This document shows positions 3,310-21,125 of a DNA stretch of 29,565 nt, piece by piece (position 1 is the first letter of the stretch; each line of letters starts with the position of its first letter). Source of the stretch: an uncultured Candidatus Saccharibacteria bacterium (GTDB taxonomy: Bacteria > Patescibacteriota > Saccharimonadia > Saccharimonadales > UBA4665); NCBI GenBank assembly GCA_964446315.1, contig CAYUNY010000001.1, positions 1-29,565 on the forward strand, given 5' to 3'. A model generated the notes under the pieces. It was not told where the DNA came from. It made no database searches and was given only the letters and a program-made list of their open reading frames with translations. The translations under genes were made by a program, and so were the position numbers.

Positions 3310-4374
<1,065 letters not shown>

Positions 4375-4375
<1 letters not shown>

Positions 4376-4926
4376 TGGCAAACGAACTGGCAGTGCGCGA
4401 AACCGAGATACCCGGCATGTTCGTCATTGACCTGGTACTGCACGGCGACCAGCGCGGTTGGTTCAAGGAAAATTACCAGCAAGCAAAAATGGAAGAGCTG
4501 GGCCTGCCGCATTTCGAGCCGGTGCAGAACAACTTTTCATACAACGCCGAGCGCGGCGTCACCCGCGGCATGCACGCCGAGCCCTGGGAAAAATTTATTT
4601 CGCTGGCCAACGGCAAGGTTTTTGGCGCCTGGATCGACTTGCGCAAGGGCGACAGCTTTGGCAAGGTATTCACCATGGAAATCACGCCAGAAGTAGCCAT
4701 TTTCGTGCCCCGCGGCGTGGCCAACGGCTACCAAACGCTAGAAGAAAACATTACCTACACCTACCTGGTTAACGACCACTGGTCGCCGGATGGTAATTAC
4801 GCCTCGGCCCACATGTTTGATCCCCAGTCAGCGATCCCCTGGCCTATCCCCGAATCGGAGGCTATAATCTCTGAAAAGGATACCAAGAATCCACTGCTTA
4901 AAGATGTACCGCCGATGGAGTTTTAA
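4375..4926 (+). CDS. rmlC: dTDP-4-dehydrorhamnose 3,5-epimerase
   Basis: HGDQRGWFKE, QNNFS, GVTRGMHAEPW, DLRKG, VPRGVANGYQTL. TGATG overlap with rmlB. Confidence 0.95.
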
Positions 4927-5780
4927 TGAACGATTCTGAGATTTTTATTGTCGGCGCTAATGGCCAGCTGGGTACGGCGCTCAAAGCCAAGTACCCCGGC
5001 GCCCAAAGTGCCGATATCGACGAAATGGACATTACCAAGGCCGAGTCGGTGACCAATTTTGATTGGAGCGGTATTAAATACATCCTAAACGCCGCCGCTT
5101 TCACCAACGTTGACGGCGCCGAAACGGCCGAGGGCCGCGTGGCCGCCTGGAATGTTAACTCCGCCGCCGTAGCCAACCTGGTGCGCGCCGCCACGGCCCA
5201 CGATATAACAATGGTCCATATTTCTACCGACTACGTCTTTGACGGCACCAAAGCACCGCATAGCGAAGACGAACTATTCAGCCCGCTCAGCGTTTATGGC
5301 CAGAGCAAGGCCGCCGGCGACCTGGTAATCAGCCTGCTGCCAAAACACTATGTTCTACGCACCAGCTGGGTTATCGGCGAGGGCCCGAACTTTGTACGTA
5401 CCATGTTGGGACTGGGCCAGAAGGGCGTCGCGCCCACCGTGGTAGCCGACCAAGTCGGCCGCTTGACCTTCACCGACGAGCTGGTTAAAGCTATTGATCA
5501 TCTGCTAGCCAAACAGGCGCCTTATGGCACCTACAACGTCAGCAACGGCGGCGAACCGGCCAGCTGGGCCGACATTACCCGCCAAATTTTTAAAGACGCC
5601 GGTTTCGACCTAACCGTCACCGACACCACGACCGCCGAGTACTACGCCGGCAAAGACGGCATCGCCCCCCGCCCCTTGCAAAGCAGTTTCGACCTGTCTA
5701 AAATCCAGGCCACAGGCTTTACGCCAACCGACTGGCAAGAAAACTTAGCGTCTTACGTTAAAAAGGAGTTGGCAATATGA
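4926..5780 (+). CDS. rmlD: dTDP-4-dehydrorhamnose reductase
   Basis: [60 protein letters not shown] overlap with rmlC. Confidence 0.95.
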
Positions 5781-6637
5781 AAGGTATTATTTTAGCCGGC
5801 GGTTCCGGCACCCGTCTCTACCCTATCACTAAGGGCATCAGTAAGCAGATTATGCCCATCTATGACAAGCCGATGGTTTACTACCCGCTCAGCGTGCTCA
5901 TGCTGGCCGGCATCCGCGACATCCTGGTTATTACCACGCCCGACGACCAGCCGCAGTTCCAGCGCCTACTGGGCGACGGCTCCGACATAGGCATAAAGCT
6001 GACTTACGCCGCACAGCCGGAACCGGGCGGCTTGGCGCAAGCCTTTATTATCGGCGAGGAATTTATCGGCGGCGATAAGGTAGCCCTGGTTCTGGGCGAT
6101 AATATTTTCTACGGCGAGTCGTTTGGCTACAGCTTGAAGGAATGCGTCGATCCCGACGGCGGCATAGTCTTCGCCTACAAAGTTTCCGATCCGGAACGCT
6201 ACGGCGTTGTTGAATTCGACGATCAGCACCAGGCCGTTTCCATAGAAGAAAAACCGGCCCATCCCAAATCCAATTACGCCGTAGTCGGCCTCTATTTTTA
6301 CGATAACGAGGTGGTCGAAATCTCCAAAAATCTCAAGCCCTCGGAGCGCGGCGAGCTGGAAATCACCAGCGTCAACGAAGAGTACTTAAAGCGCGGCAAG
6401 CTTAAGGTGCAGACCATGCACCGCGGCTCGGCCTGGCTCGACACCGGTACTTTCGAATCAATGACCGACGCCAGCGAGTACATCCGGGTGATCGAAAAGC
6501 GCACCGGCTTAAAGATAGGTTGCATCGAAGAGATCGCCTGGCGCCAGGGCTTCATTAACGACGAACAGCTCAAAAAGATCGCCGAACCGCTGGTTAAATC
6601 CGGCTACGGTAAATACATTCTGTCGCTGACCAAGTAG
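5777..6637 (+). CDS. rmlA: Glucose-1-phosphate thymidylyltransferase
   Basis: [64 protein letters not shown] overlap with rmlD. Confidence 0.98.
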
Positions 6638-6699: not shown

Positions 6700-6705
6700 T
6701 ATACT
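6700..6705 (+). promoter_or_regulatory. -10 box (TATACT) for the membrane-protein pair
   Basis: TATACT lies 7 nt before the ATG at 6713, in an AT-rich 75-bp spacer. Confidence 0.5.
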
Positions 6706-6712
6706 TTAAATA

Positions 6713-8071: not shown

Positions 8072-9351
8072 AATTCTACGCGAAAATAAATAAGTTCTTA
8101 GCTTCGTCTAAACAGTCGAGATTATTTAACAGTGGCTTGATTCTACTAATAGCTTCATCTTATATTATTAGAGCCTACCCGTATATTTTGCATCCTCAAC
8201 TTTTTGCAGAAGATGGCGATGTTTGGTTATCGGTTGCTTACAATCTCGGGCTTAAGTCTATATATCAGGTATACAATCAATTTTTGCAATTATTTGAGTG
8301 GCTGTTCAGTCTGTTTGCGGTTCATTTTGTTCCGCTACAAATCGTACCGCTCTTTTTCGTAGTGTCGGCCTTATTGATGTTTTTGTTGTTGTGTTACTAC
8401 CTCTTTTCTCAAAGAAGTGGCGTACTTAATACTAACTACCAAAAATTATATGTTGCCCTGTCGCTTTGCTTACTGGCGAATGCCGGGGAGCTTTTCTTTA
8501 ATTTTTCGAACGCAGTTTTCTATCTTGGACTAGTCGGGCTTTTTATCATCATTGTTAATAAATCAAAAAACAAATACGTTAACCTCCTGGAAAGAATCTT
8601 ATTTTTTGTACTCTGCTTTACGTCAGTTTTTCCGTTTGTGTATCTGGTTATTTTGCTCATTGAGTTGCTGTGGTATCGCAGGAAGAGGTATTACTACCTG
8701 GCATGTGCTGTTGCAGGATCAGTTGCTCAATTTATAGCTTTCATCTCTTATCCGTTGCAAAGACATAATATTCCTCTGCACGAAATCGCTTCAAGAACCA
8801 CGGGCGTAGAACTATACAATCAGATTATTAATCCTTCTTTGCGCTTTGGACGGCTCGATATAAATCCCCTGACAAGTACTCTATCCAGCATTAATTTCGC
8901 ATTTATTGCTGTCGTCCTGGTCGGAATAATAAGTCTGGCTATTTTTTACAAGTCCAATTATAAGACAAAGTACCTATTGCTCTTTTGTTTACTTATGACT
9001 TTGATAAGCCTGAGAGGCCCTGCCGATATAGAGAGTGTGGCAGTTATGGCAACCTCTCTTTCAGGAAATAGGTATTTTATCTATGGAATAATCGGGATGT
9101 TCGTCGTCTGGGCAAAGTTCAGCCAAACACTCTTTAAAAAAGATCATCTGGCTGGATTTCTACTAATCTTTTTTGCCTTCGCCACCATTTCATCCATTCG
9201 GCTTGGCTCGTTTCTCATACAAAAGGGCTGGATGGACCTTACAAAGGAGTACTCGACGGGGATCACCGAGTTTGATCATAATAGAGACCGAGGCATAAAG
9301 ATACCGGTAAACCCCCCGGGTTGGTACATCGTTTTCTTGCCTAAGAAGTAG
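8068..9351 (+). CDS. Polytopic membrane protein, putative GT-C-fold glycosyltransferase (paralog B)
   Basis: Colinear with paralog A (PQLFAEDG, TNYQKLYVALSLCLL, GNRYFIYGIIGMFVVWAKFSQ, IPVNPPGW). Start moved to ATG 8068 because of the ATGA overlap with the paralog A stop. Confidence 0.6.
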   Translation: MKFYAKINKFLASSKQSRLFNSGLILLIASSYIIRAYPYILHPQLFAEDGDVWLSVAYNLGLKSIYQVYNQFLQLFEWLFSLFAVHFVPLQIVPLFFVVSALLMFLLLCYYLFSQRSGVLNTNYQKLYVALSLCLLANAGELFFNFSNAVFYLGLVGLFIIIVNKSKNKYVNLLERILFFVLCFTSVFPFVYLVILLIELLWYRRKRYYYLACAVAGSVAQFIAFISYPLQRHNIPLHEIASRTTGVELYNQIINPSLRFGRLDINPLTSTLSSINFAFIAVVLVGIISLAIFYKSNYKTKYLLLFCLLMTLISLRGPADIESVAVMATSLSGNRYFIYGIIGMFVVWAKFSQTLFKKDHLAGFLLIFFAFATISSIRLGSFLIQKGWMDLTKEYSTGITEFDHNRDRGIKIPVNPPGWYIVFLPKK

Positions 9352-9361
9352 TCGCGTGGAC

Positions 9362-9916
9362 TTAAGCTATTACTAGCTCTTCTTCTTTGCTCTCTTCGGT
9401 TTCATGGCCACGAAATACCACGTACTTGTACAAGAGATAGTTCCAGGTCATGCCGATTAACACTGCTGTAAGTTTTGTGCCCAAAAGCTGAAGGGCTTTG
9501 AAGGTTATGGGGTGTCCAGCCGCCATAAAAGTACTGGTCTTATTAATAACCCATAGTTTGTCTGTTACTAAATATATGACGAGGTCTTGGATAAGAATAA
9601 CCCCCAGGCCGGTTACTAAAAAGAAGTGCGCATACTTTTTTAATGAATAGTCGCCATGGTGGCGAAACACAATTCGGTGATTGAGAAAGTATGAAACCGT
9701 TATGGCGATGCTGACCGATAAACTATTGGCTATAATTGGCGACCAGTTAAAAATTTTAACTATCGCGAACAGTAAACATATATCGAATGTGGTGTTAAAG
9801 CTACCGATCACTAGAAAACGAGTTATCCTACGTTCCCATAACTTTTTAACCAAATGCAACATACTGCTCTTTAAATACTTTCCTCTTTGGATGAATTTCT
9901 TGTTACTATTGTACAT
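9362..9916 (-). CDS. GtrA-family lipid-linked sugar translocase
   Basis: RFLVIGSFNT, ANSLS..VSYFLNHRIVF and WNYLLYKYVVF, with 4 TM segments. The start is uncertain (GTG 9931, ATG 9925, 9916 or 9862); 9916 has GATAAT 7 nt upstream. Confidence 0.85.
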   Translation of the reverse strand: MYNSNKKFIQRGKYLKSSMLHLVKKLWERRITRFLVIGSFNTTFDICLLFAIVKIFNWSPIIANSLSVSIAITVSYFLNHRIVFRHHGDYSLKKYAHFFLVTGLGVILIQDLVIYLVTDKLWVINKTSTFMAAGHPITFKALQLLGTKLTAVLIGMTWNYLLYKYVVFRGHETEESKEEELVIA

Positions 9917-9954
9917 GAAGACCATTATCACTTAATGCGCTGAAAGAATCGTTT

Positions 9955-10701
9955 GTGAAGAAAATTGCTATTGTTACTCCTACCTATAATGAAGCAAGCA
10001 ACATTAAGAAACTGATATTAGGTATTGAGAAGGCATGTAAGGGTCTTGGTGATTTATCATTCACCTTATTTGTTATCGACGACAGCTCGCCCGACGGCAC
10101 GGCGCGCGTCGCAAAAGAAGTTGCCAAAAAGATAAGTGCCAAGAACTTTAACGTGCGGGTACTGGTTCGCAAGACTAAAGAAGGCGTAGGCAAGGCCTAT
10201 GTTCACGGTTTTCATGAGGTGCTCAAGCAGGACTTTGATTTCCTTATACAAATAGATGCCGACCTGTCGCACAACCCAAAATATATTAAAGACCTTGTTG
10301 CCCAGGCGCGTTTGGGCAAGGATTTCGTATCAGCCTCCAGATACATCAAGGGCGGAGGGATTTCCGACTGGGGTCTACACCGAAAAATTCTGAGCCGCGG
10401 AGCTAATATCTACACAAGAACATTTTTAAGCGGCCGGATTACCGATTATACGAACGGCCTAAATATGTTTAGCACCGCTCTGTTAAGAGAAATCGATGTT
10501 GATACTCTCAGTTCAGCCGGCTATGGTTTCTTTATAGAACTTAAGTACAAAGCCCTGCAACATGCTAGGCATTATGCGCAAATACCGATCATTCTAACCG
10601 ATCGAAAACACGGCAAATCAAAGATGCCTAAAAATGCCATTGTCATAAATCTTTTACTGGTGCCGCGCTTGCGCCTGGTTGGCCAGAAGAAAACGAGTTA
10701 G
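9955..10701 (+). CDS. GT2 polyprenol-phosphate glycosyltransferase (Dpm1/Ppm1-like)
   Basis: VTPTYNEASNI, IDDSSPDGT, GVGKAYVHGF, IDADLSHNP, SASRYIKGG, DYTNG and the terminal DRKHGKSKM. GTG start; no C-terminal TM helices. Confidence 0.88.
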   Translation: MKKIAIVTPTYNEASNIKKLILGIEKACKGLGDLSFTLFVIDDSSPDGTARVAKEVAKKISAKNFNVRVLVRKTKEGVGKAYVHGFHEVLKQDFDFLIQIDADLSHNPKYIKDLVAQARLGKDFVSASRYIKGGGISDWGLHRKILSRGANIYTRTFLSGRITDYTNGLNMFSTALLREIDVDTLSSAGYGFFIELKYKALQHARHYAQIPIILTDRKHGKSKMPKNAIVINLLLVPRLRLVGQKKTS

Positions 10702-10703
10702 CG

Positions 10704-11984
10704 CTACTTTTTCTTGCGGGTAGGCTTGGATGAAGCCAGGGAGTAAGTAGAAAATTCTGGAGCTGGGAAGATCATTACTCCTCCCTTTTCCAAATATTTG
10801 TGTTCACGGTCAATAAACGTTTGCCTGAAGAACCAGGGTAAAATTAACAGGTAATCGGGCTGTTTCTTTCGCATGTCGGCTTCAGAATAAATAGGAATGT
10901 TGGTGCCAATGGTGTGGCGTCCCCATTTAACTTCCTGTTTCTCGGCGATGCCATCTACCAGGCTGTCGTCGAGTCCGAACATCTGTAGCAAGGTGTTACC
11001 TTTTGTGCTGGCACCGTACCCCCAGACAGATTTGCCCTCTGCCTTAGCCTGTTTAATGAAGTCGGCTGTTTGCTTCTTGAGCGCCAAAATTCGCTTATAA
11101 AAGTCGGTGTACACTTTTTTAGTGTTAAAGCCTTCGCGTTCTTCCCAACCTAGCAATGAATCTACCCTTATCTTACAAATGTCACGGTCGGCAGGTGTCA
11201 GATAATTATCGGGGGCGCCTTGCTTTTGCAAGTACAGTCTAATTGAACCGCCATTAACGTTGTTAAGCTCAACGTCTTTGATAACGAAACCGACCCGGTC
11301 CGTCAGCCATTTCAATGATGTCAGGTTATAGTAACAGAGGTGCTCATGGCAAATAACACCAAGTTCGGTCTGCATGATGTTGGCCGGAGTGTAAGAAACC
11401 TGCAGTGTAAACAGACCATCGTCCTCGAGAATCTCATAGACGTCCTTTAGGAAACTCTCGGGGTTATCGACATCATAGAAACAGGCCGCACAACTGACTC
11501 GTGAGGCTTTGGTATAGCCGGCTTTTTTAAATGCTTTGGCAGAGAAGTATTCTCGAATGTTAACATCGGCATTGTCCTTTGCTTCGGGATAATCCGAAGG
11601 GTCAATACCAACGCGTAGATACTTCTTTTTATCGACTGTAGATAATAGGTAGCCGTCGTTGGAAGCAATGTCAACATAGACCGATTTCTCGCTTTTTTCG
11701 GGGATGGACTTACAGGTTTTTTCTGCCAGATCTTGCAGTGCCTCACGCATGGCCGGGTTTACGGCGCTACGGTAGTAATACATACTGCCCCACATTAATG
11801 CGGCATCGGGCTGTTTGGTTAGTTGCACGGCCTTGCTAACCGGGTCGAAGCCAAGGGCCATTTCGCAGGGTGGCCCCTTTGGTTTTTCGCCCTTTTTTAA
11901 AAAGTCAGACACATAAAGTTCGCCGACACTAAAGAGAGGCTCTAATTTCGCCCCAGATACCACGCTTTTTCTGTACTCCGTCAT
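10704..11984 (-). CDS. NDP-hexose C-methyltransferase-like SAM-dependent enzyme
   Basis: YYYRS, VDIASNDG, ICHEHLCYY, NGGSIR, GYGASTKGNTLLQ and LILPWFF match the three-domain sugar 3-C-methyltransferase layout. The N-terminal Zn-site cysteines appear replaced. Confidence 0.85.
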   Translation of the reverse strand: MTEYRKSVVSGAKLEPLFSVGELYVSDFLKKGEKPKGPPCEMALGFDPVSKAVQLTKQPDAALMWGSMYYYRSAVNPAMREALQDLAEKTCKSIPEKSEKSVYVDIASNDGYLLSTVDKKKYLRVGIDPSDYPEAKDNADVNIREYFSAKAFKKAGYTKASRVSCAACFYDVDNPESFLKDVYEILEDDGLFTLQVSYTPANIMQTELGVICHEHLCYYNLTSLKWLTDRVGFVIKDVELNNVNGGSIRLYLQKQGAPDNYLTPADRDICKIRVDSLLGWEEREGFNTKKVYTDFYKRILALKKQTADFIKQAKAEGKSVWGYGASTKGNTLLQMFGLDDSLVDGIAEKQEVKWGRHTIGTNIPIYSEADMRKKQPDYLLILPWFFRQTFIDREHKYLEKGGVMIFPAPEFSTYSLASSKPTRKKK

Positions 11985-12113
11985 GAATAAATATACTATC
12001 AGATAATGGTGGTTCTACAAATAATTCGTTTGTGGTGAGTCAGATAGGTTTTGACTGGTAAAGTGTGAAGAAAAGTACTACAATAGTGTTGCAAGTCTAG
12101 TAAAATAAATACT

Positions 12114-12665
12114 GTGAAACAGCTAAAAAATTTCCGCGCCAAACACCCGTTTGCTTATATAACTCTCGTTCTGATAGTTATGGCTATTGCCGTGTTCGTA
12201 TTGCTAGAAGTTACCAATACGACCCACATATTCCACAAATCGTCTAAGCTGGCGACGGCCCGCAGTAAAGACTACAAGCCAAGCTCTCCTACAAGCACGA
12301 ATCAAGGCGGTGCTGTTGATAAAAAAGGTGCTCCTACTCCAACAACTGAAACAACAAGCTCAGCACAATGGACCACTTCCACCTCTGGGGTCATTACCCT
12401 GCAACAACCGGTAGCTAACACGACCGTCAATTCGGGTGACACCTTGCGGGGTACCGCCGAAACTGATACTATCCAGTACCGCCTTGTTGACGACAAAGTC
12501 GGCATTATTGCTCAGGGTTCTTTAAGCGTTGTTGGTGGAAAATTCTCCGGGGTATTGCAGTTTAACGCGCATAGTACTACCGGTGAACTGAAAGTATTCA
12601 GTATTGACCCTCAATCCGGAGCCGAAATTAACCACGCCGATATTAAGATCAATCTTAATCCATAG
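12114..12665 (+). CDS. Membrane-anchored exported protein: N-terminal TM, Ser/Thr/Pro-rich linker, C-terminal Ig-like (Gmad2-like) domain
   Basis: TM segment AYITLVLIVMAIAVFVLL; linker SSPTSTNQ..PTPTTETTSSAQWTTSTS; beta-rich ITLQQP..LRGTA..YRLVD..G..GELKVF. GTG start with TAAAAT 7 nt upstream. Confidence 0.6.
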   Translation: MKQLKNFRAKHPFAYITLVLIVMAIAVFVLLEVTNTTHIFHKSSKLATARSKDYKPSSPTSTNQGGAVDKKGAPTPTTETTSSAQWTTSTSGVITLQQPVANTTVNSGDTLRGTAETDTIQYRLVDDKVGIIAQGSLSVVGGKFSGVLQFNAHSTTGELKVFSIDPQSGAEINHADIKINLNP

Positions 12666-12682
12666 AAAGGCCGTTATAAGTA

Positions 12683-14929
12683 ATGTTCCAGCGTAAAAAG
12701 CCGTTTAGCCTTCTCACTGCTAGTCTGCTGGTATTGGCTTCGGTGCTAGGTTCACTCCTTCTGCCACAAGACGCACATGCTGCATATATAGCAAGCGATC
12801 TTATCGACAATATTATCTTCACTAATGCCGGCTCTATGGACCAGGGCCAGATTCAGACCTTTTTATCTGGTAAAGGTGGCTACATAGCTGGCTATTCGAC
12901 TTTCAGCGGCCGGGATGGTGGTAATGTACCAGCCTCGCGGATTATTGCCGAGGCCGCCTCGGACTATGGTATTAATCCGCAAGCTATTATGGCGACTCTG
13001 CAAAAAGAACAAAGCCTTGTAACGGATCCTAGCCCCAGCCAGTCTCAACTTAATTGCGCCATGGGATATTTATCTTGCGATGGTAGCCACAACTCCTTTT
13101 ATTCACAGGTTGATGCCGGAACATGGCAACTTCGCTACAGCTATGAAGCAAGTAGCGGTCGGGCTTGGGGTGGTCACTCTGTGTCTGAATACCCTTGCAA
13201 AAATGCCACCAACCTTTATTCTGCTGGCCTTTACCCAGGCAACACTGTTACTTTCTATAACAGCCCTGGTGGCTCGGCCAGGACAATTACTCTAGCTAAC
13301 GCGGCTACTGCTTCTCTCTATTGCTACACGCCTTACGTTGGGCCCTATAGTCAGACTGGCTATTCCGGTAGCTATAATTTTGTGATCAACTTTGAGGCTT
13401 GGTTCGGCAGTACCTTAGCATCCCCACTTGTGAAGTCATCAAGTAGCCCTAGCATTTATCTCCTTGATAGCGACGGCCAGACGCTACACCCGATCCCTTC
13501 GTATGACATAATGAGTGCGTTCGGATTATCGAGTACGCCGGTTACTGTTGTAAATTCATTGTCGGACTTTACCGTTGGTTCGACATTACATACTCTGATA
13601 CAAAGATCCGATGGCGGCATTTACTTAGTTGATCATGGCGTGAAGTATGCCATTAACAGTGGTGCTACCTGTACCAACTGGGGATTGGGCTGTTTCGACA
13701 CGAATCAAGTAACTACTGGCATGGGTGACAGAACCGTTGACGCAGTTCCTGTGGCCGGCACACTACCGGCACTGCAGAACAATAACGGCGCGGTTTACCT
13801 AATGAAAAATGGTAATAAGGAGCCGGTGATCAGCCCATCCGCGCTGTTTGAACTAGGTTATGGCTGGGGCGATGTAGCGCCAATTAGCAATTACAATAGT
13901 ACCCAACCGCTAGGGCCGCTACATATTCCCAATGGCATGGCTGTGAAATATAAATCTGGCGATGGCATATATCTCTATGACAACGGTGCTTATAATGCAA
14001 TTCAGGACATTAACCTTGTGTCGGCCTGGAACTTGAATGTTATCGCTAACCCCCCGGCTTCCAGTTATGACACGACACCACCACCCGTTTCCAGTGATGT
14101 TTTGTCCAATTTTGCTACCGATGGAAGAGACACCTACCTGATAGATCAGGGCATGAGAAAGTACATAACGTCCGGATTATCAGCGTGGACCACTGGATCG
14201 ACTCATATTACCAGTTTTGCCCACGCCGCTCTGGCTAAGCTACCAAGCTCATCCGCGACTACAATAATCCGGGCTGCTAGCGGCGGCATTTATGCCCTAC
14301 AGAACGGCGCTAAACGTCCTATACCTTCCTTTAATGACTTTTATGGGCTGGGGCTTAGCCCGAGCCAGCTAACTAACGTTTCTGATTACACTGCTTCGAC
14401 CCTCGCAACTGGCAATGTAGACCTGCCTGATTCGGCTCTGTTCCAGGTCAGTGGCAACCCAGGCATCTACCTGGTAAATAATCAGGGCGCCACCTGGCTC
14501 AGCACGCCAAACGACTTTTCCTATTTCGGTTTCAATTCGCGCGCCGTCGAGCAATTCCCCTCAAGTGTACTAACGGCATATCCTGCCAGTAGTGACGGGC
14601 TATTGGTGTTGGTCAGAAACGACAGCGGCCAGGTTTATACAGCCAGCAACGGCACCTTGTATGTCCTGAGCAGTAAGATCGTGAACGACTGGGGATTGGG
14701 GAGCGCTTCACCCACTCTCCTGAGCAATAAAAACCTATCCAGCCTCGGTAAATCGAATATGACTAATTTCGCACGCACGCCGAGCGGCTCCATCTACTAC
14801 GGCCAAGGCGGTTCTGCGCACCCGATCTCTAGTTACAACGAATTCTTGAGCTTAGGCGGTAGCTCCAGTAATACCATCAACGTTGCGCCTGAGTTTATTG
14901 CACTGTGCCCCGTTGGCTCAACACTGTAG
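12683..14929 (+). CDS. Secreted surface protein: signal peptide, putative lysozyme-like/cell-wall-hydrolase domain, nine ~55-aa repeats
   Basis: Signal peptide ending AHA-A. N-domain motifs IIFTN..SM..QIQTFL and YGINPQAIMATLQKEQSL. Repeats follow from aa ~249 to the C-terminus. Confidence 0.65.
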   Translation: MFQRKKPFSLLTASLLVLASVLGSLLLPQDAHAAYIASDLIDNIIFTNAGSMDQGQIQTFLSGKGGYIAGYSTFSGRDGGNVPASRIIAEAASDYGINPQAIMATLQKEQSLVTDPSPSQSQLNCAMGYLSCDGSHNSFYSQVDAGTWQLRYSYEASSGRAWGGHSVSEYPCKNATNLYSAGLYPGNTVTFYNSPGGSARTITLANAATASLYCYTPYVGPYSQTGYSGSYNFVINFEAWFGSTLASPLVKSSSSPSIYLLDSDGQTLHPIPSYDIMSAFGLSSTPVTVVNSLSDFTVGSTLHTLIQRSDGGIYLVDHGVKYAINSGATCTNWGLGCFDTNQVTTGMGDRTVDAVPVAGTLPALQNNNGAVYLMKNGNKEPVISPSALFELGYGWGDVAPISNYNSTQPLGPLHIPNGMAVKYKSGDGIYLYDNGAYNAIQDINLVSAWNLNVIANPPASSYDTTPPPVSSDVLSNFATDGRDTYLIDQGMRKYITSGLSAWTTGSTHITSFAHAALAKLPSSSATTIIRAASGGIYALQNGAKRPIPSFNDFYGLGLSPSQLTNVSDYTASTLATGNVDLPDSALFQVSGNPGIYLVNNQGATWLSTPNDFSYFGFNSRAVEQFPSSVLTAYPASSDGLLVLVRNDSGQVYTASNGTLYVLSSKIVNDWGLGSASPTLLSNKNLSSLGKSNMTNFARTPSGSIYYGQGGSAHPISSYNEFLSLGGSSSNTINVAPEFIALCPVGSTL
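13427..14926 (+). repeat. Nine degenerate ~50-60-aa protein repeats
   Basis: Recurring unit x-(L/I/F)-x-x-(S/N/D)-(G/P)-x-(I/V)-Y-L-x-x-x-G-x-x-x-x-I...(F/W/L)G. Examples: SPSIYLLDSDGQ, DGGIYLVDHGV, NGAVYLMKNGN, GDGIYLYDNGA, RDTYLIDQGM, SGGIYALQNGA, NPGIYLVNNQG, SGQVYTASNGT, SGSIYYGQGGS. Confidence 0.8.
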
Positions 14930-14960
14930 AGTATTTCAACCAAGCTTCTCTTAGACTCTG

Positions 14961-17900
14961 TTATTTAGTACTCACATAGTTCCAGATGGTATCGAGCTGT
15001 TGAGACCAGGTATATCCTAGAGATTGAAGACCATTCTTGGCAATTTTATCCCTTAGTACCTTATCGTCAACTAGTAACGAAATCTTTTCGGCCATAGCCG
15101 CAGGTGAAGGCTCGCTTAATAAGCAATTTACCCCGTCTTTTAATAACCAGAGGTTATCTTCGTTATTGTTTGTAACTGTAGCCATACCGGAAGCCATAAA
15201 CTCGAATGGCTGATATGAGGGGTGCTTAGACAGCATATAAACAAACCCTATGTCGCAGTTCCTATAAAGGTCCGCTACTTCGTCTATAGATTTTAATAGC
15301 CCGAGATTGAGTATTTTGCCTCGTAGGCCGAAGTCGCCATCCGACCAATTAGCACCTGCTGTAATTATTTCTATCTTATCACCGTATTTTTTGATCAAGC
15401 GCTTCATAATATCTATGCCCAAATTGAAAGCATTGCGGGGATTATTGGGTCTGGCATAAAAGAAAACGCGAACCTTCTTGTCAGTCCTCTTATAGGCGAG
15501 CGGTCTGTATAAGGTTTGGTCTACCGCAGGAATGAAACTAACTCCTTCTGTCCCGTGACGCTGATTTATAGCAGCAAGAAGACCGGGCGTGTTGACTAGG
15601 CCTTTAAAGCCAAATCGATACGTTGACTCAGCCAGCGCATAGGTTGAGCCCGCTTGGTAAAAAAGTGGCTCGTAATCCTGTATAAAGTAGTACTTTCTTT
15701 TTGTCTTGTTGAACTTTAACAAGAGGTAGGCCGAGACCCAGAAGGAACAAATTGCGACATCACACGCTGGTAGATCATCCAGGTCTTGATAGGCCGGGTC
15801 AAAGATTATGAGTTCGTATTTATCAAGTTTGGGAAACTTCAGACTAATCTCTTTTTTAAGCTTTTCCACGTCAAACGAGGGGTTGTCGTAGATAATGATG
15901 CGGTTGTGCACACCCTCCTTAGAAAATTTTTCAATAAACCTGAAGATGGTGAAAATGCCTCCAAAACTAAGATGGTCGAAATTCGGCACAAACCAGTTTG
16001 CCGTTGATACCTTTTCGAGCTGATGAGCGGTAATTTGTTTGTTGCTTCTTGTAATGTCAGCTTCAGTTATTTGAAATATCTTATTTGAAACAAAGTTATA
16101 TTCTTCCCTAAGTTCTTTGCTGGTCATCATCTTTGAGCGCCTTGGCGCGAGGCGGTTTAAGGCCCTTAGGCGATATCTTGTGGTACTACGTAGCTTTCTA
16201 GCTACACCCTTGGGTCCGTGATTACGATACGTGTGAATTGCTTTCTGTACGGCTCCGCTCATTGACGTTGTGTCCAGTCCTATCTGTTCATTCATTAGGT
16301 CTAGGTTGATATTAAAGTAAGGGTCTCTACCGCCTAGATATGGGCGGTAATACTTCAGGGAATGATCATAATCTAATTGTATGCCATTATCGTAAGAACC
16401 GACAGAGAGGTTCTCGTGGTGAATGAGTTCGGCAAAGGGCCAGTATATGTTCCTATAGCCGGCTTCGTGCAAGCTTATGCCCAGTGCGACATCGTTTCCT
16501 GCCACTAAAAATGTTTCGTCCAAGCCCCCCACTTCCTTATATTTAGCATGCTCTATGGCGAGGCACGCTCCAGTGACTGCCAAATAATTTCGTGGCCATG
16601 CCGGCATACCAAAGTCAGTCCAGTCCGTTAAAAGTCTATGTCGAAAAACATGGCCGGCCATAACTTTCATACCTACAATAATGCCCGCGTGTTGAATCGT
16701 CTTATTGGGGTAATAGAGAAGTGGGCCAACTGCGCCAACGCCTTGCTGTGATGCAACGCCTATAAGTTCTTCTAACCAATCTGACGTTAGGACCTCGGTA
16801 TCGTTATTGAGCAAAACAAGGTATTCACCGCCTGCCTGCTTACTACCAAAGTTATTGATTGCCGAATAATTAAAGGGGTGGTCCCATAGATATATCTTGC
16901 ATTTTTCATTTAACTTTAAGGTATTTAAGTATTTGTGCGTTTCTTCTTCCTTGCTATTGTTTGAAACTAGAATGATTTCATAGTTTTTATAAGTAGTCTT
17001 GGACAATATGCTACCAACGCACTGCTTGAGGAGGTCTGGCTTGTCCTTAAAGGGAATTATGATTGAGACTTTTGGTTGCTTCGCAGGCAGTTTGTACTTT
17101 AACCGATAGTTGGTTGGTCTATTGCGTATCTCAAGGACATCTGCCTCTAGTTTTCTCCTTTCGACCGCATCGGCCAGCGCTCTGCGACCAGCTGTGTCGG
17201 CATAGTCTTTTTCTCCAACATTTTTTGATGTTGAGCCATCAGCTAGGCGCCAATGGTACAAAATTTTAGGAATGTGCCCGATTCTATCGGTTTTTTCCGT
17301 GAAACGAAGTAGAAAATCGTAGTCTTGTGCGCCATCAAAGCCCGGACGCAGACCACCGATCTCGTCAACTATTGCTTTCCTAGCAACAACAAAATGCGTA
17401 ATGTAATTCACGCCTAGCAATAGATCAGGTGACCAGTTTGGTTTAAAAAATGGTAGTGAGCGTTTTTCGCCATCATCGCTGAGCTTATCCTCATCTGAAT
17501 ATACTAAATCCAGCTTTGGGTCCCAGTTTAGTACACTCACAACCTCGCTAAGCGCAAATGGCGAAAGAACATCATCATGATCTAAAAACGCAACGTACTC
17601 ACCGCTTGCATTATCTATGCCAATATTCGTATTGCCTACAATGCCGAGGTTCTCCTTAACATCAATGTATTTGATCCGCTTGTCTTGCCTGGCAAGCTCC
17701 TTAATACTGTTTTTTGTGGCCTGTTGATCTGAGCCGTCGGCGAGACAAAGTTGCCAGTTTTGATAGGTCTGATTGATAACGGATTCTAATAGTGGTGATA
17801 TATATTTCTTGGGCGTGTTAAAGCATGGCATCACAATAGATATTAGTGGCCCCTGATTTTCATGATTGTGTTGCGAATCAGCGTTATCTGCTTCAAAAAG

Positions 17901-18020
17901 CCTTGGTTCGACTTTATCAATCCAGGCTTGGTAATCTCTCTTATCTTTTTTCCAGCCTTTAGCGCGCGAAACCATGCCTATAACCCACGGATTTTTTGAC
18001 TTTAGGATTCTTTTCTTCAA
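14961..18020 (-). CDS. Tri-domain glycosyltransferase GT2 + GT2 + WsaF-like GT4 (putative rhamnan polymerase)
   Basis: First GT2 from aa ~59 (ISIVMPCFNT, FLDHDD, YSDEDK, FKPNWSP). Second GT2 from aa ~317 (VSIIIPFKD, FNYSAINN, LLNNDTEV). GT-B from aa ~670 (FGGIFT, YFIQDYEPLFY, AESTY, RPNNPRNAF, SKHPSYQPFEFMASG). TTG start; alternative ATG at 17975. Confidence 0.88.
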   Translation of the reverse strand: MKKRILKSKNPWVIGMVSRAKGWKKDKRDYQAWIDKVEPRLFEADNADSQHNHENQGPLISIVMPCFNTPKKYISPLLESVINQTYQNWQLCLADGSDQQATKNSIKELARQDKRIKYIDVKENLGIVGNTNIGIDNASGEYVAFLDHDDVLSPFALSEVVSVLNWDPKLDLVYSDEDKLSDDGEKRSLPFFKPNWSPDLLLGVNYITHFVVARKAIVDEIGGLRPGFDGAQDYDFLLRFTEKTDRIGHIPKILYHWRLADGSTSKNVGEKDYADTAGRRALADAVERRKLEADVLEIRNRPTNYRLKYKLPAKQPKVSIIIPFKDKPDLLKQCVGSILSKTTYKNYEIILVSNNSKEEETHKYLNTLKLNEKCKIYLWDHPFNYSAINNFGSKQAGGEYLVLLNNDTEVLTSDWLEELIGVASQQGVGAVGPLLYYPNKTIQHAGIIVGMKVMAGHVFRHRLLTDWTDFGMPAWPRNYLAVTGACLAIEHAKYKEVGGLDETFLVAGNDVALGISLHEAGYRNIYWPFAELIHHENLSVGSYDNGIQLDYDHSLKYYRPYLGGRDPYFNINLDLMNEQIGLDTTSMSGAVQKAIHTYRNHGPKGVARKLRSTTRYRLRALNRLAPRRSKMMTSKELREEYNFVSNKIFQITEADITRSNKQITAHQLEKVSTANWFVPNFDHLSFGGIFTIFRFIEKFSKEGVHNRIIIYDNPSFDVEKLKKEISLKFPKLDKYELIIFDPAYQDLDDLPACDVAICSFWVSAYLLLKFNKTKRKYYFIQDYEPLFYQAGSTYALAESTYRFGFKGLVNTPGLLAAINQRHGTEGVSFIPAVDQTLYRPLAYKRTDKKVRVFFYARPNNPRNAFNLGIDIMKRLIKKYGDKIEIITAGANWSDGDFGLRGKILNLGLLKSIDEVADLYRNCDIGFVYMLSKHPSYQPFEFMASGMATVTNNNEDNLWLLKDGVNCLLSEPSPAAMAEKISLLVDDKVLRDKIAKNGLQSLGYTWSQQLDTIWNYVSTK

Positions 18021-18048
18021 TATAAGTATGCCCTGCTCTCGCCACTAG

Positions 18049-18999
18049 TTATTTTGGGGAAATTTTAGCCTTGGTGCTAGAAAGTCGCTTTGCAAGCCTC
18101 CATGCTTTACTTTTTTTAATATTATCAAGATCGGTCTTATGTTTGTTTAGTTCAGCGATCTGCTCTTCTTTAGCCTTCAAGATACCCTCGTAGTGGCTGA
18201 TTGTATCCTTTATGTATGCTTGTAATTCGTCCCCCTGTTCGCCAACTTGTTTAGAGCTCCAATGTTCTGAAAGCACACCAATAGGGCTTATCGATTCTTG
18301 TATCGGTTCGTCAGAACATATCAACATGAAGAAAAGTACCTGCTCCGGCTTCAGGGGCGCAGCATTAATGATTCTGATTTTTTCATCGCTCTCTTCAAAA
18401 ATCATCTTATCGTTACTGACTCCGCTATAAAGCCATGTGCCTTGGTAATAAGAGTCAACGTATTTAAAGTGTTTTTTTAAGAAATCAACGAGTTCTTTGT
18501 GCTCATACTCATGTACATGGAAGTGATTACCTTCTGGAAACTCCAGATCGTTTGGGGTAGAAAGAATGAGCTGTCCCTTGGGCTTAAGCACTCTTTTTAT
18601 CTCCCGCAAAAACTTCTCTGCTTCTTTAATGTGCTCCAACGTTTCAAATGTTACGACACTTTCTACCGAGTTATTATCAATCGGTATTTTGGTTCCGCTA
18701 CCAACCTTAAAGGTAATGTTAGGGTTATTAAAATTTTTCTTGGCGTACTCTACGGCCCCCTTGTCAATGTCAACTCCGTAAACCTCGTTTGCTGTTTGGG
18801 CAAGCATTTGTGTGCCATATCCCGACCCGCAAGCAATATCAAGAATAGTTTTTCCCTTAACCAGTGGTGCCGCAGACTGGTATCTGGCTATATGGTCGCC
18901 GTATGCAATGGTAGCTTTGTGGTGCTCAGGCACCATCCTCTCTCCATCGTTAGGCAGTTCTACCTTTTTCTTGTTCGTGGTTGGCTTCGGTGTTCGCAT
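18049..18999 (-). CDS. Class I SAM-dependent methyltransferase with C-terminal coiled coil (putative glycan chain terminator)
   Basis: ERMVP..HIARY, ILDIACGSGYGT, VTFETLEH, LILSTPN, NHFHVHEY. The tail LKAKEEQIAELNKHKTDLDNIKKSKAWRLAKRL is heptad-like. Confidence 0.85.
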   Translation of the reverse strand: MRTPKPTTNKKKVELPNDGERMVPEHHKATIAYGDHIARYQSAAPLVKGKTILDIACGSGYGTQMLAQTANEVYGVDIDKGAVEYAKKNFNNPNITFKVGSGTKIPIDNNSVESVVTFETLEHIKEAEKFLREIKRVLKPKGQLILSTPNDLEFPEGNHFHVHEYEHKELVDFLKKHFKYVDSYYQGTWLYSGVSNDKMIFEESDEKIRIINAAPLKPEQVLFFMLICSDEPIQESISPIGVLSEHWSSKQVGEQGDELQAYIKDTISHYEGILKAKEEQIAELNKHKTDLDNIKKSKAWRLAKRLSSTKAKISPK

Positions 19000-19008
19000 A
19001 TGACCTCT

Positions 19009-19037
19009 ATTCTAACTTCGTTGGTGCAAGTAAACAA
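19009..19037 (-). promoter_or_regulatory. Putative internal sigma70-type promoter for the methyltransferase/polymerase pair
   Basis: TTGTTT (19037-19032), a 17-nt spacer, TAGAAT (19014-19009), then 9 nt to the ATG at 18999. Confidence 0.45.
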
Positions 19038-19059
19038 CCTGCGCAGTAGTTGTTCTCAT

Positions 19060-20280
19060 TTACGCAACGCCAATGACGATATCGTGCTTAGCGTTGATGA
19101 AAGTTCCGTTTTTAACTTTTTTACGTACTCTAAATTTGCAGCTGGATTCAGCCCAGTCAAGAATAGTGGTCCCGTCACTATTTGCGATTGCCGGAGCAAC
19201 AGAAAACGTTCCTGAGTTAAAAACATTGGGTATGCGCCATTGAAGCGTTGTGGTAGTGCCCGCTTTTAGCTCAACCGTCTTTACGTGATTAATCATTGTG
19301 TTGGAGTTGAATACTCGGTGCTCATCTTCATCCGAAATAATGATGCCATAAACAGGCTCATTAATATTTTTATTTGCTTTGTATGTAACTTTGATAAGAA
19401 TGGTGCTGTCCTCGTCTGCAAAGTCAGCCTTTGTCTTCATGTCTTCGCCAAGCGCAGTGGCACTAATAACGCGGGCGTCTCCAGTGCCCCAGCGTGTCTT
19501 AGTCTTAGCTTTTTCCTCTGCCTTTTTCTTTTGGTCCTCGCTTGCATTTAATACATCCATGTACTCGTTTACAACTCTGTCTATTTTGTCATTGGTCACA
19601 ACCTTGCCCTGCTCAAGCAATAGTCCTCTATCGCAGTATTTTAGTAAAGCATCGCTGTCGTGACTTACAAAAATTACAGTCTTTTTGTCCTGTTTGAGCT
19701 GTCTAAAGTAGTCGTAACATTTTTTTTGGAAGAGTGAGTCGCCTACGGCCAAAACTTCGTCAATGAGTAACACATCTGATTTTGCACGTATAGCAATCGA
19801 AAAGGCTAGCCTTACCTGCATGCCTGAAGAGTAGTTTTTTAACTTCTGGTCCATGAAACGCTCAATCTCGGCAAAATCAACGATGTCACTGTACATTGTG
19901 TTCATCTCTTTCCTCGAGAAACCGAGAAGAGCGCCATTTAGAAAAACATTTTCGCGGCCAGTGAGCTCGGGGTTAAAACCAACACCAAGCTCTATGAAAG
20001 GTGTCAGTTTGCCGTTGATAGAAATACTTCCTTCGCTGGGAGAGTAGATTCCTGCCAACATTTTAAGTAAGGTGCTTTTACCACTACCGTTACGTCCAAC
20101 GATGCCAAAGAATTCTCCTTTTCTTACTTCAAATGAAACATTCTTAAGCGCATGTTGCTGCTCAAATGTTAGCTTTCGCCTGTAGAAATTAAGCACCGCG
20201 CTTTTGATAGAGGTGTTTTTTTCGTGAGGTAGCTTAAACGTTTTACTCACATTTTCCACTTTAATTGCGACATCTGACAT
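19060..20280 (-). CDS. wzt: Polysaccharide ABC exporter ATP-binding subunit with C-terminal Wzt_C-like domain
   Basis: Walker A GRNGSGKST, ELGVGFNPELTGREN, signature YSSGMQVRLAF, Walker B LLIDEVLAVGD, VSHD. A ~160-aa beta-rich extension starts RWGTGDA. Confidence 0.95.
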   Translation of the reverse strand: MSDVAIKVENVSKTFKLPHEKNTSIKSAVLNFYRRKLTFEQQHALKNVSFEVRKGEFFGIVGRNGSGKSTLLKMLAGIYSPSEGSISINGKLTPFIELGVGFNPELTGRENVFLNGALLGFSRKEMNTMYSDIVDFAEIERFMDQKLKNYSSGMQVRLAFSIAIRAKSDVLLIDEVLAVGDSLFQKKCYDYFRQLKQDKKTVIFVSHDSDALLKYCDRGLLLEQGKVVTNDKIDRVVNEYMDVLNASEDQKKKAEEKAKTKTRWGTGDARVISATALGEDMKTKADFADEDSTILIKVTYKANKNINEPVYGIIISDEDEHRVFNSNTMINHVKTVELKAGTTTTLQWRIPNVFNSGTFSVAPAIANSDGTTILDWAESSCKFRVRKKVKNGTFINAKHDIVIGVA

Positions 20281-20282
20281 GG

Positions 20283-21083
20283 TTATATGTTCTCCGCGAA
20301 GTACTTTGATTCTTTACGGAAATAGCTGATACCTCCGACTAGCGCCAGTATAACGACCAGAAAGGGCAGGAATTGATACCAGCCGCCTTGGAAGATTTGG
20401 TGGGCGGTGGTTGCGTCATGGGTTATGGCAGCGTATCGTGCGTCTTGGATGGCTTGGCCCATAGGATTAATTAAAATTAGTTTCTGGAAGGTAAGATTTG
20501 GGATCTGAGATAACGGATAAAGTATGGGCGTTAGATAGAAGCCTGCTTGTAGAATCACCTCCCAGATGTAGTTAACGTCTCGGAATTTTACAAAAGCCGC
20601 CGAAAGAAACATTGACAACCCTAGAGCAAACAAATAGACCTCGACCAAAATAAGCGGTACCCAGAGTATTGTGGGCGTCACGTCGACATGGTTAACAATC
20701 ATGAAGACGATGATCACTATAAGGTTTAAGAAGAGGTTGATTAGCGCTGAAATGCTACTGCTGAGCACAATTATCCATCTTGGTATTTTTATCTTGCGGA
20801 TCAGGTCACCCCGTCCCACGATTGAGCTAAGGCTTTGTACGGTCATTTCGTTAAAGAAGTTCCAGATGACGATACCAAGCAATAGATAGACCGGATAGTG
20901 CGGAATGCCAGCGCCGAGTTTCAGGAATTTTACAAATACTATGTAAAGGATTACGAAAAGTAGTAGTGGGCGTAGTAGCGACCAAGCGTAACCAAGGGCG
21001 GAACCCTGGTAACGTAGCTTGAAATCGGTGCGAACCAGCTCGCTGAGCAAGGCACGGTTCTGCTTGGAGTAAATGTGACGCAT
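20283..21083 (-). CDS. wzm: Polysaccharide ABC exporter permease (Wzm/RgpC-like)
   Basis: DFKLRYQGSALGYAWSLLRP, RGDLIRKI, FRDVNYIWE, YLTPILYP, NPMGQAIQDAR, FAENI; 6 TM segments. Confidence 0.95.
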   Translation of the reverse strand: MRHIYSKQNRALLSELVRTDFKLRYQGSALGYAWSLLRPLLLFVILYIVFVKFLKLGAGIPHYPVYLLLGIVIWNFFNEMTVQSLSSIVGRGDLIRKIKIPRWIIVLSSSISALINLFLNLIVIIVFMIVNHVDVTPTILWVPLILVEVYLFALGLSMFLSAAFVKFRDVNYIWEVILQAGFYLTPILYPLSQIPNLTFQKLILINPMGQAIQDARYAAITHDATTAHQIFQGGWYQFLPFLVVILALVGGISYFRKESKYFAENI

Positions 21084-21092
21084 TATTTTAGA

Positions 21093-21125
21093 GTATTATA
21101 GAGGAAATGAGCGCTTCAGTCGATG
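21093..21125 (+). repeat. 33-bp imperfect direct repeat, copy 1 (contains overlapping bidirectional -10 boxes)
   Basis: gtattatagaggaaatgag-cgcttc-agtcgatg; 27/33 identical to 23507-23539. Confidence 0.85.

Follow-up and report, generated by a model that had tools for sequence, protein, structure and literature searches.

Known glycan polymerases and the protein P0001

Multi-module O-antigen polymerases of ABC-transporter-dependent pathways include WbdA of Escherichia coli O8/O9a, together with WbdD, and WbbB of Klebsiella/Raoultella. In these pathways the terminator is either separate or fused, and the carbohydrate-binding domain of Wzt reads the cap. In Geobacillus stearothermophilus NRS 2004/3a, the L-rhamnan of the S-layer glycan is assembled by WsaE and WsaF (PMC2943079, PMC3898925).

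We analyzed a stretch of 29,565 nucleotides (the window) from a ~0.74 Mb Saccharibacteria (CPR) assembly, a soil MAG that is 84% complete and comprises 106 contigs. Positions 14961..18020 of the minus strand contain an unbroken ORF with a TTG start, which encodes a fusion protein of 1019 aa (P0001; coordinates include the stop codon). In this interval the plus strand is interrupted by many stops, and a plus-strand reading was therefore rejected. The domain order in P0001 is GT2a-GT2b-GT4(WsaF), i.e., two GT-A domains followed by one C-terminal GT-B domain. Like WbdA and WbbB, P0001 would use a separate GT module for each linkage, all within one soluble chain, but those enzymes differ from it in their sugars and in their GT families, which are GT4 only in WbdA and GT102, GT103 and GT99 in WbbB.

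Pfam identified GT2 (PF00535) in two stretches of P0001 (E-value 1.5e-47), the best at residues 61-221 and the second from about residue 317. The AlphaFold2 model contains three confident folds (about 60-300, 318-535 and 673-1019), joined by a low-confidence segment (537-645) that includes a long helix; with a pTM of 0.49, the inter-domain geometry is not confidently predicted. The original prediction, made from the DNA letters and ORF translations, had placed the domain starts at about 59, 317 and 670, in agreement with these boundaries, and its view that two GT-A modules and one GT-B module share a chain is supported by Pfam, a PDB sequence search and AlphaFold2. The N-terminal half has its best structural matches in K4CP, PmHS2 and LARGE1, which also have two GT-A domains per chain, and K4CP matches by sequence as well. 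Unlike P0001, these enzymes have no GT-B third module, and they use UDP-sugar donors to make glycosaminoglycan-type products.

The GT2 pair is related to WsaE

The first GT2 domain (residues about 58-300; 17121..17849, minus strand), identified by Pfam and modeled with a pLDDT of 85-94, has a DXD motif, D147-H-D149-D150 (17571-17582), that aligns with the DSD of the K4CP A2-domain. It also has YSDED and AQDYD motifs, and residues D147, D149, D150, D176, D178, D233 and D235 are invariant across 20 diverse fused proteins. The second GT2 domain (residues about 312-585; 16266..17087, minus strand), supported by Pfam and the WsaE alignment, has no classical DXD. At this place it has N405-N406-D407 (16800-16808), as does Geobacillus WsaE (FLNNDT), and D407, H444, G499, G508 and D510 are conserved in diverse homologs.

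Residues 58-573 of P0001 align colinearly with residues 596-1111 of P0290, a WsaE-type protein of G. stearothermophilus (42% identity, E-value 2e-129), as expected from the proposal of a WsaE-like GT2 pair. The alignment covers the two rhamnosyltransferase domains of P0290, and the motifs DHDD (domain 1) and LNNDT (domain 2) are identical in the two proteins and kept in the 20 homologs. The P0290 gene is within a canonical slg locus, sgsE-wsaA-wsaB-wsaC-wzm-wzt-wsaE-wsaF-rml-wsaD-wsaP, the gene order of which is that published (PMC2943079). No methyltransferase domain was detected within P0001 by Pfam, unlike in WsaE, which has an N-terminal 2-O-methyltransferase.

The C-terminal domain is of the WsaF type

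Residues 673-1019 (14964..16004, minus strand) form a WsaF-type GT4 domain, with a pLDDT mostly of 70-94 in the AlphaFold2 model. Pfam WsaF_N (residues 684-803, 43.8 bits) and WsaF_C (851-980, 96.7 bits) both exceed their gathering cut-offs of 27 bits. A phmmer search against the PDB matched WsaF (2x0d) to residues 650-956 (E-value 8e-30), and Foldseek matched the domain to 2x0e/2x0f with target TM scores of 0.63-0.67 and 25-27% identity, in line with a GT-B fold made of two Rossmann domains. The WsaF encoded in the same G. stearothermophilus locus as P0290 shares 31% identity with this domain. The WsaF-type assignment thus stands, and the motifs on which it was originally based (FGG, IQDYEPLFY, AESTY, R..RNAF and HPSY) are present.

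Mutagenesis of WsaF has defined ten donor- and acceptor-site residues, F62, D171, F176, Y247, R249, R254, K302, H326, Y329 and E333 (PMC3898925). In the alignment with 2x0d, nine of the ten are identical in P0001: F686, D782, F787, Y855 and R857 correspond to the first five, and R862, H933, Y936 and E940 to R254, H326, Y329 and E333. Most of these nine are invariant in the 20 diverse fused proteins. The donor-site residue K302 is replaced by L908 in P0001 and is unconserved in the fused clade; K910 is two residues away. A PHPSYPPLE-type motif has been proposed as a rhamnose signature (PMC3898925), and P0001 has KHPSYQPFE (15201-15224), which retains H, P, S, Y, P and E but has other residues in place of two prolines. 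In combination, the alignments, including those with the 20 diverse fused proteins, indicate that hallmark residues are retained in all three domains, and a single-chain polymerase is therefore plausible.

Genomic context

The gene for P0001 is preceded by wzm, wzt and a methyltransferase gene, in this order and all on the minus strand. Pfam identified an ABC-2 permease, Wzm (20283..21083), and the ATPase Wzt (19060..20280; ABC_tran, 84.6 bits) with a C-terminal carbohydrate-binding domain (Wzt_C, 77.9 bits with a cut-off of 30.4). Between wzt and the P0001 gene, and immediately upstream of the latter, is a gene of the same operon for a SAM-dependent methyltransferase of 316 aa with a C-terminal helical tail (18049..18999; Pfam). 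Over its full length it matches the N-terminus of P0139, a methyltransferase-GT2-GT2-WsaF protein (30% identity, E-value 1e-34), and homologous modules are fused to polymerases in other proteins as well. It is probably the chain-terminating capping enzyme.

The locus thus resembles that of Geobacillus in having methyltransferase, GT2, GT2 and WsaF-type GT4 domains in the same order behind wzm-wzt, a Wzt with Wzt_C, and rml genes. It differs in that the methyltransferase is separate and GT2-GT2-WsaF is one protein, whereas methyltransferase-GT2-GT2 and WsaF are the two proteins in Geobacillus. It had been suggested that the parts of WsaE and WsaF are re-sorted here, with the methyltransferase split off; both points are correct, in that the wzm-wzt-wsaE-wsaF order is kept and the ORF boundaries have moved. 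Further differences are that K302 is unconserved in P0001, that its WsaF part carries an extra basic N-terminal segment of about 90 aa, and that the host is a member of the Saccharibacteria.

Homologs of rmlB, rmlC, rmlD and rmlA, for dTDP-L-rhamnose supply, are on the plus strand (3377..6637). The window also encodes Gmd with an adjacent SDR, ManC, a sugar C-methyltransferase and two further GT4 proteins. Surface glycan genes make up roughly two-thirds of the 30-kb contig. No polyprenyl-phosphate initiator (Bac_transf) was found within the window; one is present on contig C48 as an ORF of 481 aa that adjoins a Wzy_C protein. LCP proteins are also encoded in the genome.

Origin of the fusion

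In related Saccharibacteria genomes the GT2-GT2 and WsaF-like proteins are encoded by separate genes with an ATGA stop/start overlap. Such pairs, from the immediate relatives, occur in Saccharimonadales loci L001, L015, L017, L018, L027-L029 and L088 and genomes G018, G043, G049 and G056, and share 54-70% identity with P0001 in the GT2-GT2 part and 57-61% in the WsaF part. They are in the same locus, adjoining jag/yidC, but comprise two genes, mostly with overlapping stop and start, whereas one extra base gives a single ORF in the window. The window has TCAATGA where the split relatives have TCATGA or GCATGA. The former WsaF-like start codon is visible in the junction alignment as the in-frame Met587 (16260..16262, minus strand), which marks the fusion point. 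These comparisons indicate that P0001 arose when a single base was inserted at the ATGA where two genes, separate until then, overlapped.

Because only one base separates the fused and split states, and because the soil MAG is fragmented (106 contigs), we considered whether a spurious base, introduced by sequencing or assembly, has merged two real genes. This is very improbable. Nine fused sequences (68-82% identity) group in a single clade, with SH-aLRT support of 92, that is nested within the split forms, and all nine keep an in-frame Met at the old start. Moreover, the junction is reproduced, with no differences and no gaps, in independently assembled contigs of two samples, the check being made on the assembled contigs. 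Four of the split relatives compared (L001, L015, L018 and L088) have a Shine-Dalgarno motif 4-9 nt ahead of the WsaF-like start; this motif is eroded in the window.

The segment between the second GT2 domain and the WsaF-type domain (residues 587-672; 16005..16262, minus strand) is basic, with a net charge of +13, and a helix is predicted at low confidence. Its homology to the N-termini of stand-alone Saccharibacteria WsaF-like proteins (net charge +9 to +11) indicates that this "linker" is the basic extension with which the once separate WsaF-like protein began. The original prediction of a linker with a basic helix therefore holds for the basic, predicted helical character of the segment, but not for its being an element specific to the fusion, as stand-alone proteins have the same extension and distant fused proteins have a neutral or acidic linker. 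On the same grounds, we rejected the helix as a membrane anchor specific to the fusion.

Distribution of the architecture

The GT2-GT2-WsaF architecture was found in at least 64 of the best 150 cluster representatives and in at least 28 of 80 species loci, in both cases from many phyla. These counts rule out rarity, and the architecture search shows that the arrangement is not unusual but already common, an outcome that the original prediction had itself named as counting against it. Uncharacterized proteins with a methyltransferase or GT4 followed by GT2-GT2-WsaF occur in Myxococcota, Acidobacteriota, Actinomycetota, Planctomycetota, Comamonas, Nitrosopumilus and others. Their GT2a-GT2b-WsaF core is colinear with that of P0001 (31-44% identity) and its catalytic motifs are conserved, but most have 300-900 extra N-terminal residues (the methyltransferase or GT4), and the linkers of these proteins are neutral or acidic. 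Neighbors were examined for one fused locus (Myxococcus sp., L023), and there the gene is just downstream of wzm-wzt. The Myxococcus fused homologs are at the position of M. xanthus wbgA (MXAN_4621).

Our literature search found no biochemically characterized GT2-GT2-WsaF chain, with WsaE hits restricted to Geobacillus papers and reviews; the titles and abstracts of the publications found on Saccharibacteria and rhamnose did not mention such an enzyme. Since this design is widespread in bacteria and archaea, P0001 represents a modest variation on a known system, with no new enzyme class and no new mechanism.

Proposed function and alternatives

P0001 is probably a cytoplasmic, single-chain glycosyltransferase with three active sites. 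[quoted passage not shown] The two inverting GT2 domains would add alpha-L-Rha, and the retaining WsaF-type domain would add beta-L-Rha from dTDP-beta-L-Rha. The product would have a roughly three-linkage repeat, like the glycan of G. stearothermophilus NRS 2004/3a. The neighboring methyltransferase would cap the chain, the C-terminal domain of Wzt would recognize the cap, and Wzm/Wzt would export the chain. Chain start and attachment, the latter to either an S-layer protein or the cell wall, could involve the Bac_transf initiator and the Wzy_C-type ligase/O-oligosaccharyltransferase of contig C48, or an LCP protein. The fusion would set a 1:1:1 ratio of the three sites and hold them close, adding no new chemistry. 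With Gmd, an SDR and two further GT4s encoded in the window, GDP-derived 6-deoxyhexoses could therefore enter the pathway somewhere.

Two alternatives accept the chain as real and differ in what it makes. Only one or two of the domains may be catalytic, in which case P0001 would make a simpler repeat, or an adaptor oligosaccharide, and not a three-linkage polymer. Multi-domain glycosyltransferases with degenerate modules exist, the second GT2 domain lacks the first Asp of DXD, and K302 is unconserved. We nevertheless regard this as doubtful, since NND also occurs in the functional Geobacillus WsaE-type protein, the five GT2b residues listed above are conserved across diverse homologs, and all three domains have been retained over wide divergence in many phyla. 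It is also unlikely that P0001 polymerizes another sugar, be it D-rhamnose, another 6-deoxyhexose made via the Gmd route, or a mixture. The genes for Gmd and its adjacent SDR, ManC and the sugar C-methyltransferase would be consistent with this, as would the WbgA position of the Myxococcus homologs, the O-antigen of M. xanthus not being known to be a simple rhamnan. However, the dTDP- and rhamnose-contacting residues are conserved together with HPSY..P.E, the proposed rhamnose signature (PMC3898925), rmlBCDA is in the window, and the GT2 pairs of P0001 and WsaE share 42% identity. An L-rhamnan polymerase remains our preferred assignment for P0001.

Implications

With this locus, Saccharibacteria, which have very small genomes, would possess a glycan pathway of the WsaE/WsaF type that depends on an ABC transporter and is probably capped by methylation. 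The locus also provides a clean case of fusion, in which the gain of one base, where stop and start overlap, made a multi-domain enzyme out of two translationally coupled genes, and it shows that the boundaries within this cassette fall at different points depending on the lineage. Fused orthologs occur in cultured Myxococcus, Comamonas (Comamonas sp. KCTC 72670) and Actinomycetota, and also in Blastococcus and Curtobacterium; such cultured organisms are tractable for relating covalent linkage to polymer fidelity and length. We tentatively suggest that methyltransferase-GT2-GT2-WsaF could be one ancient colinear module whose stop codons have come and gone many times in bacteria and archaea, and that the Saccharibacteria fusion could be recent and selectively retained. 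If so, covalent linkage may provide these ultra-small episymbionts with a rhamnan polymerase that is stoichiometric and more processive, used for a methyl-capped glycan of the Geobacillus type at the surface or on an S-layer, and Met587 might still yield a separate WsaF-like product.

A tandem glycosyltransferase fused to a WsaF-type domain

P0001 is the 1,019-aa product of a minus-strand ORF at 14961-18020, which forms one open frame (the plus strand across this interval has many stops) and begins with TTG, 28 bp beyond the gene that precedes it. Pfam identified two GT2 domains (GT2a and GT2b), followed by WsaF_N (residues 684-803) and WsaF_C (residues 851-980), both exceeding the gathering score. 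PDB sequence searches matched P0001 to WsaF (2x0d, E 8e-30) and its first GT2 domain to the chondroitin polymerase K4CP. The AlphaFold2 model (mean pLDDT 73, pTM 0.49) contains three well-folded domains (~60-300, 318-535 and 673-1019); the connector between the second and third (537-645) is poorly predicted and includes a long helix. With Foldseek, the N-terminal half matched the tandem GT-A polymerases K4CP, PmHS2 and LARGE1, and the C-terminal domain matched WsaF (target TM 0.63-0.67, 25-27% identity). The domain map of the original prediction is therefore correct, and GT2-GT2-WsaF in one chain is confirmed.

Ten WsaF residues have been probed by mutagenesis (F62, D171, F176, Y247, R249, R254, K302, H326, Y329 and E333; PMC3898925). 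Nine are identical in P0001 in the HMMER alignment (F686, D782, F787, Y855, R857, R862, H933, Y936 and E940), and L908 is aligned opposite K302. The proline-rich motif PHPSYPPLE, put forward as a rhamnose signature (PMC3898925), reads KHPSYQPFE. D147-H-D149-D150 of GT2a aligns opposite the K4CP DSD motif, and N405-N406-D407 occupies the DXD position of GT2b. When 20 diverse fused proteins are aligned, the hallmark positions are invariant or almost so. No domain looks degenerate.

Relationship to the Geobacillus system

A search started from an Aneurinibacillus homologue recovered P0290, a 1,122-aa WsaE-type protein of Geobacillus stearothermophilus. Its locus follows the published slg order (PMC2943079): S-layer protein, TPR protein, Wzy_C protein, GT2, wzm, wzt(Wzt_C), MTase-GT2-GT2, a 413-aa WsaF, rmlACBD, GT2 and Bac_transf. 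P0001 58-573 is colinear with P0290 596-1111 (42% identity, E 2e-129), the two proteins have the DHDD and LNNDT motifs in common, and P0001 shares 31% identity over its C-terminal part with the WsaF of this locus. In the window, the operon runs from wzm (20283-21083) through wzt with Wzt_C (19060-20280) and a 316-aa SAM methyltransferase (18049-18999, minus strand) to P0001, so that the methyltransferase is indeed a separate upstream gene. Its entire length can be aligned to the module at the N-terminus of P0139, a 1,339-aa MTase-GT2-GT2-WsaF chain (30% identity, E 1e-34). From the matching operon order and these alignments, we therefore conclude that the window has the Geobacillus module order and differs only in ORF boundaries. 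The C-terminal helical tail of the methyltransferase (~270-315) aligns with the MTase-to-GT2 connecting segment of P0139-type proteins, and may be a short coiled-coil spacer.

Origin of the fusion

In related genomes, GT2-GT2 (585-623 aa) and WsaF-like (432-449 aa) proteins are encoded by distinct adjoining genes. P0001 comprises both end to end, with the complete GT2-GT2 C-terminus followed by the whole WsaF-like N-terminus. Stop and start overlap in most split relatives shown (for example ...TCATGA... or ...GCATGA...). The window junction reads ...ACG TCA ATG AGC..., where one extra base places the old ATG in the upstream frame, as Met587 (16260-16262). Among the split genes shown, four Saccharimonadales loci (L001, L015, L018 and L088) have ribosome-binding motifs (AGGAG, GGAGGA, AAGAG or AAGGGG) 4-9 nt upstream of the WsaF-like start; the window has only AGGA, ~16 nt upstream of the old start.

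Met is kept at the old-start column in all nine close fused homologues. When a tree is built from the GT2-GT2 part, these group as a single clade (SH-aLRT 92) surrounded by split Saccharibacteria sequences, and two other fused sequences (P0011 and P0012) are placed elsewhere. Two samples of one soil study yielded Logan contigs that span the junction with zero differences and zero gaps. Given the fused clade, the kept Met and these contigs, the fusion is real and retained; it predates divergence of the clade (68-82% identity). A split pair 66% identical to P0001 occurs on a 4-kb contig (L024, CAZXUX010000067.1) binned as “uncultured Gammaproteobacteria.” This contig was probably mis-binned, because its pair groups within the Saccharibacteria clade.

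The original prediction described a linker with a basic helix. By homology and charge comparison, this segment is instead the N-terminus of the former WsaF-like protein: P0001 587-672 has its homologue in the extension at the N-terminus of stand-alone Saccharibacteria WsaF-like proteins, an extension that is equally basic (net charge +9 to +11 in the first 45 residues). We thus reject the possibility that fusion created the helix, which is a trait of the WsaF-like partner in this lineage and may have a role in membrane association. The connector of distant fused proteins is neutral or acidic.

Distribution of the architecture

Two of 61 same-order genomes have the fused form, the window's own (738 kb, 106 contigs, 84% complete) and one from the same family (G022), and four have the split pair; within this set, no same-genus genome has a close orthologue of P0001. 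The G022 ORF (L093, C1:108050-111160, 1,035 aa) is much more divergent (33-38% identity), has a weakly scoring middle GT2 domain and may be an independent fusion.

We searched 1.84 billion cluster representatives exhaustively with HMMER and mapped domains on the best 150 matches. At least 64 of these have a colinear core of GT2a, GT2b and WsaF, usually preceded by 300-900 additional N-terminal residues; Pfam confirmed MTase-GT2-GT2-WsaF, GT4-GT2-GT2-WsaF and plain GT2-GT2-WsaF chains. Among the best 80 loci in species-representative genomes, 28 have a fused ORF and 18 an adjacent split pair. Fused forms occur in Myxococcus, Archangium, Comamonas sp. KCTC 72670, Acidobacteriota, Planctomycetota, Blastococcus, Modestobacter, Curtobacterium, Oscillospiraceae and Thermodesulfovibrionales, and in the archaeon Nitrosopumilus. 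Archaeal cassettes (L030, L035 and L060) are fused in the Nitrosopumilus chromosome and split in Methanosarcina sp. Z-7115 and a Methanoperedenaceae MAG. The HPSY..P.E motif is found in 27 of the 28 fused loci, with no clean match in the Archangium minus locus L031. The fused gene of Myxococcus sp. RHSTA-1-4 comes straight after wzm-wzt(Wzt_C), at the position held in M. xanthus by wbgA (MXAN_4621), which is listed as an O-antigen glycosyltransferase (bioRxiv 10.64898/2026.08.28.747804). These counts therefore show that the architecture is already common and widespread in sequence databases, which by the original prediction's own standard counts against it. Literature searches turned up no fused GT2-GT2-WsaF chain that had been characterised biochemically.

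Proposed pathway

The window encodes rmlBCDA, and its operon couples P0001 to the methyltransferase and to a Wzm/Wzt transporter with a carbohydrate-binding domain. Elsewhere, the genome encodes two LCP proteins and, on another contig (C48:1510-4072), a Bac_transf initiator (WbaP/WsaP-type, 481 aa) and a Wzy_C protein (447 aa) within 2 kb of it. The Wzy_C ORF is O-antigen ligase/WsaB-like, and the Bac_transf and Wzy_C ORFs are candidates for the start and end steps of the window's glycan. Based on the Geobacillus system (PMC2943079) and GT-family stereochemistry, the inverting GT2a and GT2b would form alpha-L-rhamnosyl linkages, a beta linkage would come from the retaining WsaF-type module, and the polymer would grow in the cytoplasm attached to a polyprenol carrier. 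It would then be capped by methylation, exported via Wzm/Wzt and ligated to protein or cell wall. The main uncertainties are the sugar identity, because gmd, SDR, manC and C-methyltransferase genes are also present, the exact linkages, and any effect of fusion on processivity.

Three large ORFs without a Pfam match (452, 433 and 748 aa) lie at 6713-9351 and 12683-14929, and the related locus L001 has similar-sized counterparts, also without Pfam matches, at corresponding positions. As the window's ORFs adjoin GtrA and a polyprenyl-phosphate GT2, they suggest an extracytoplasmic decoration route. GC content is 38-46% over most of the central glycan locus (6700-21100) versus 52-60% in the flanks (the glmS/rml and jag/yidC/rnpA sides). 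The low GC and the same-genus genomes lacking a close P0001 orthologue suggest that the locus is a horizontally exchanged, strain-variable cassette beside the replication-origin gene set.

The original interpretation is partly supported: the WsaE/WsaF homology and separate methyltransferase stand, the architecture is not rare, and the linker is not fusion-specific. P0001 represents the known WsaE/WsaF-type system for rhamnan assembly in a lineage-specific fused form, most instructive for its clean one-base fusion and for the repeated re-cutting of the cassette.
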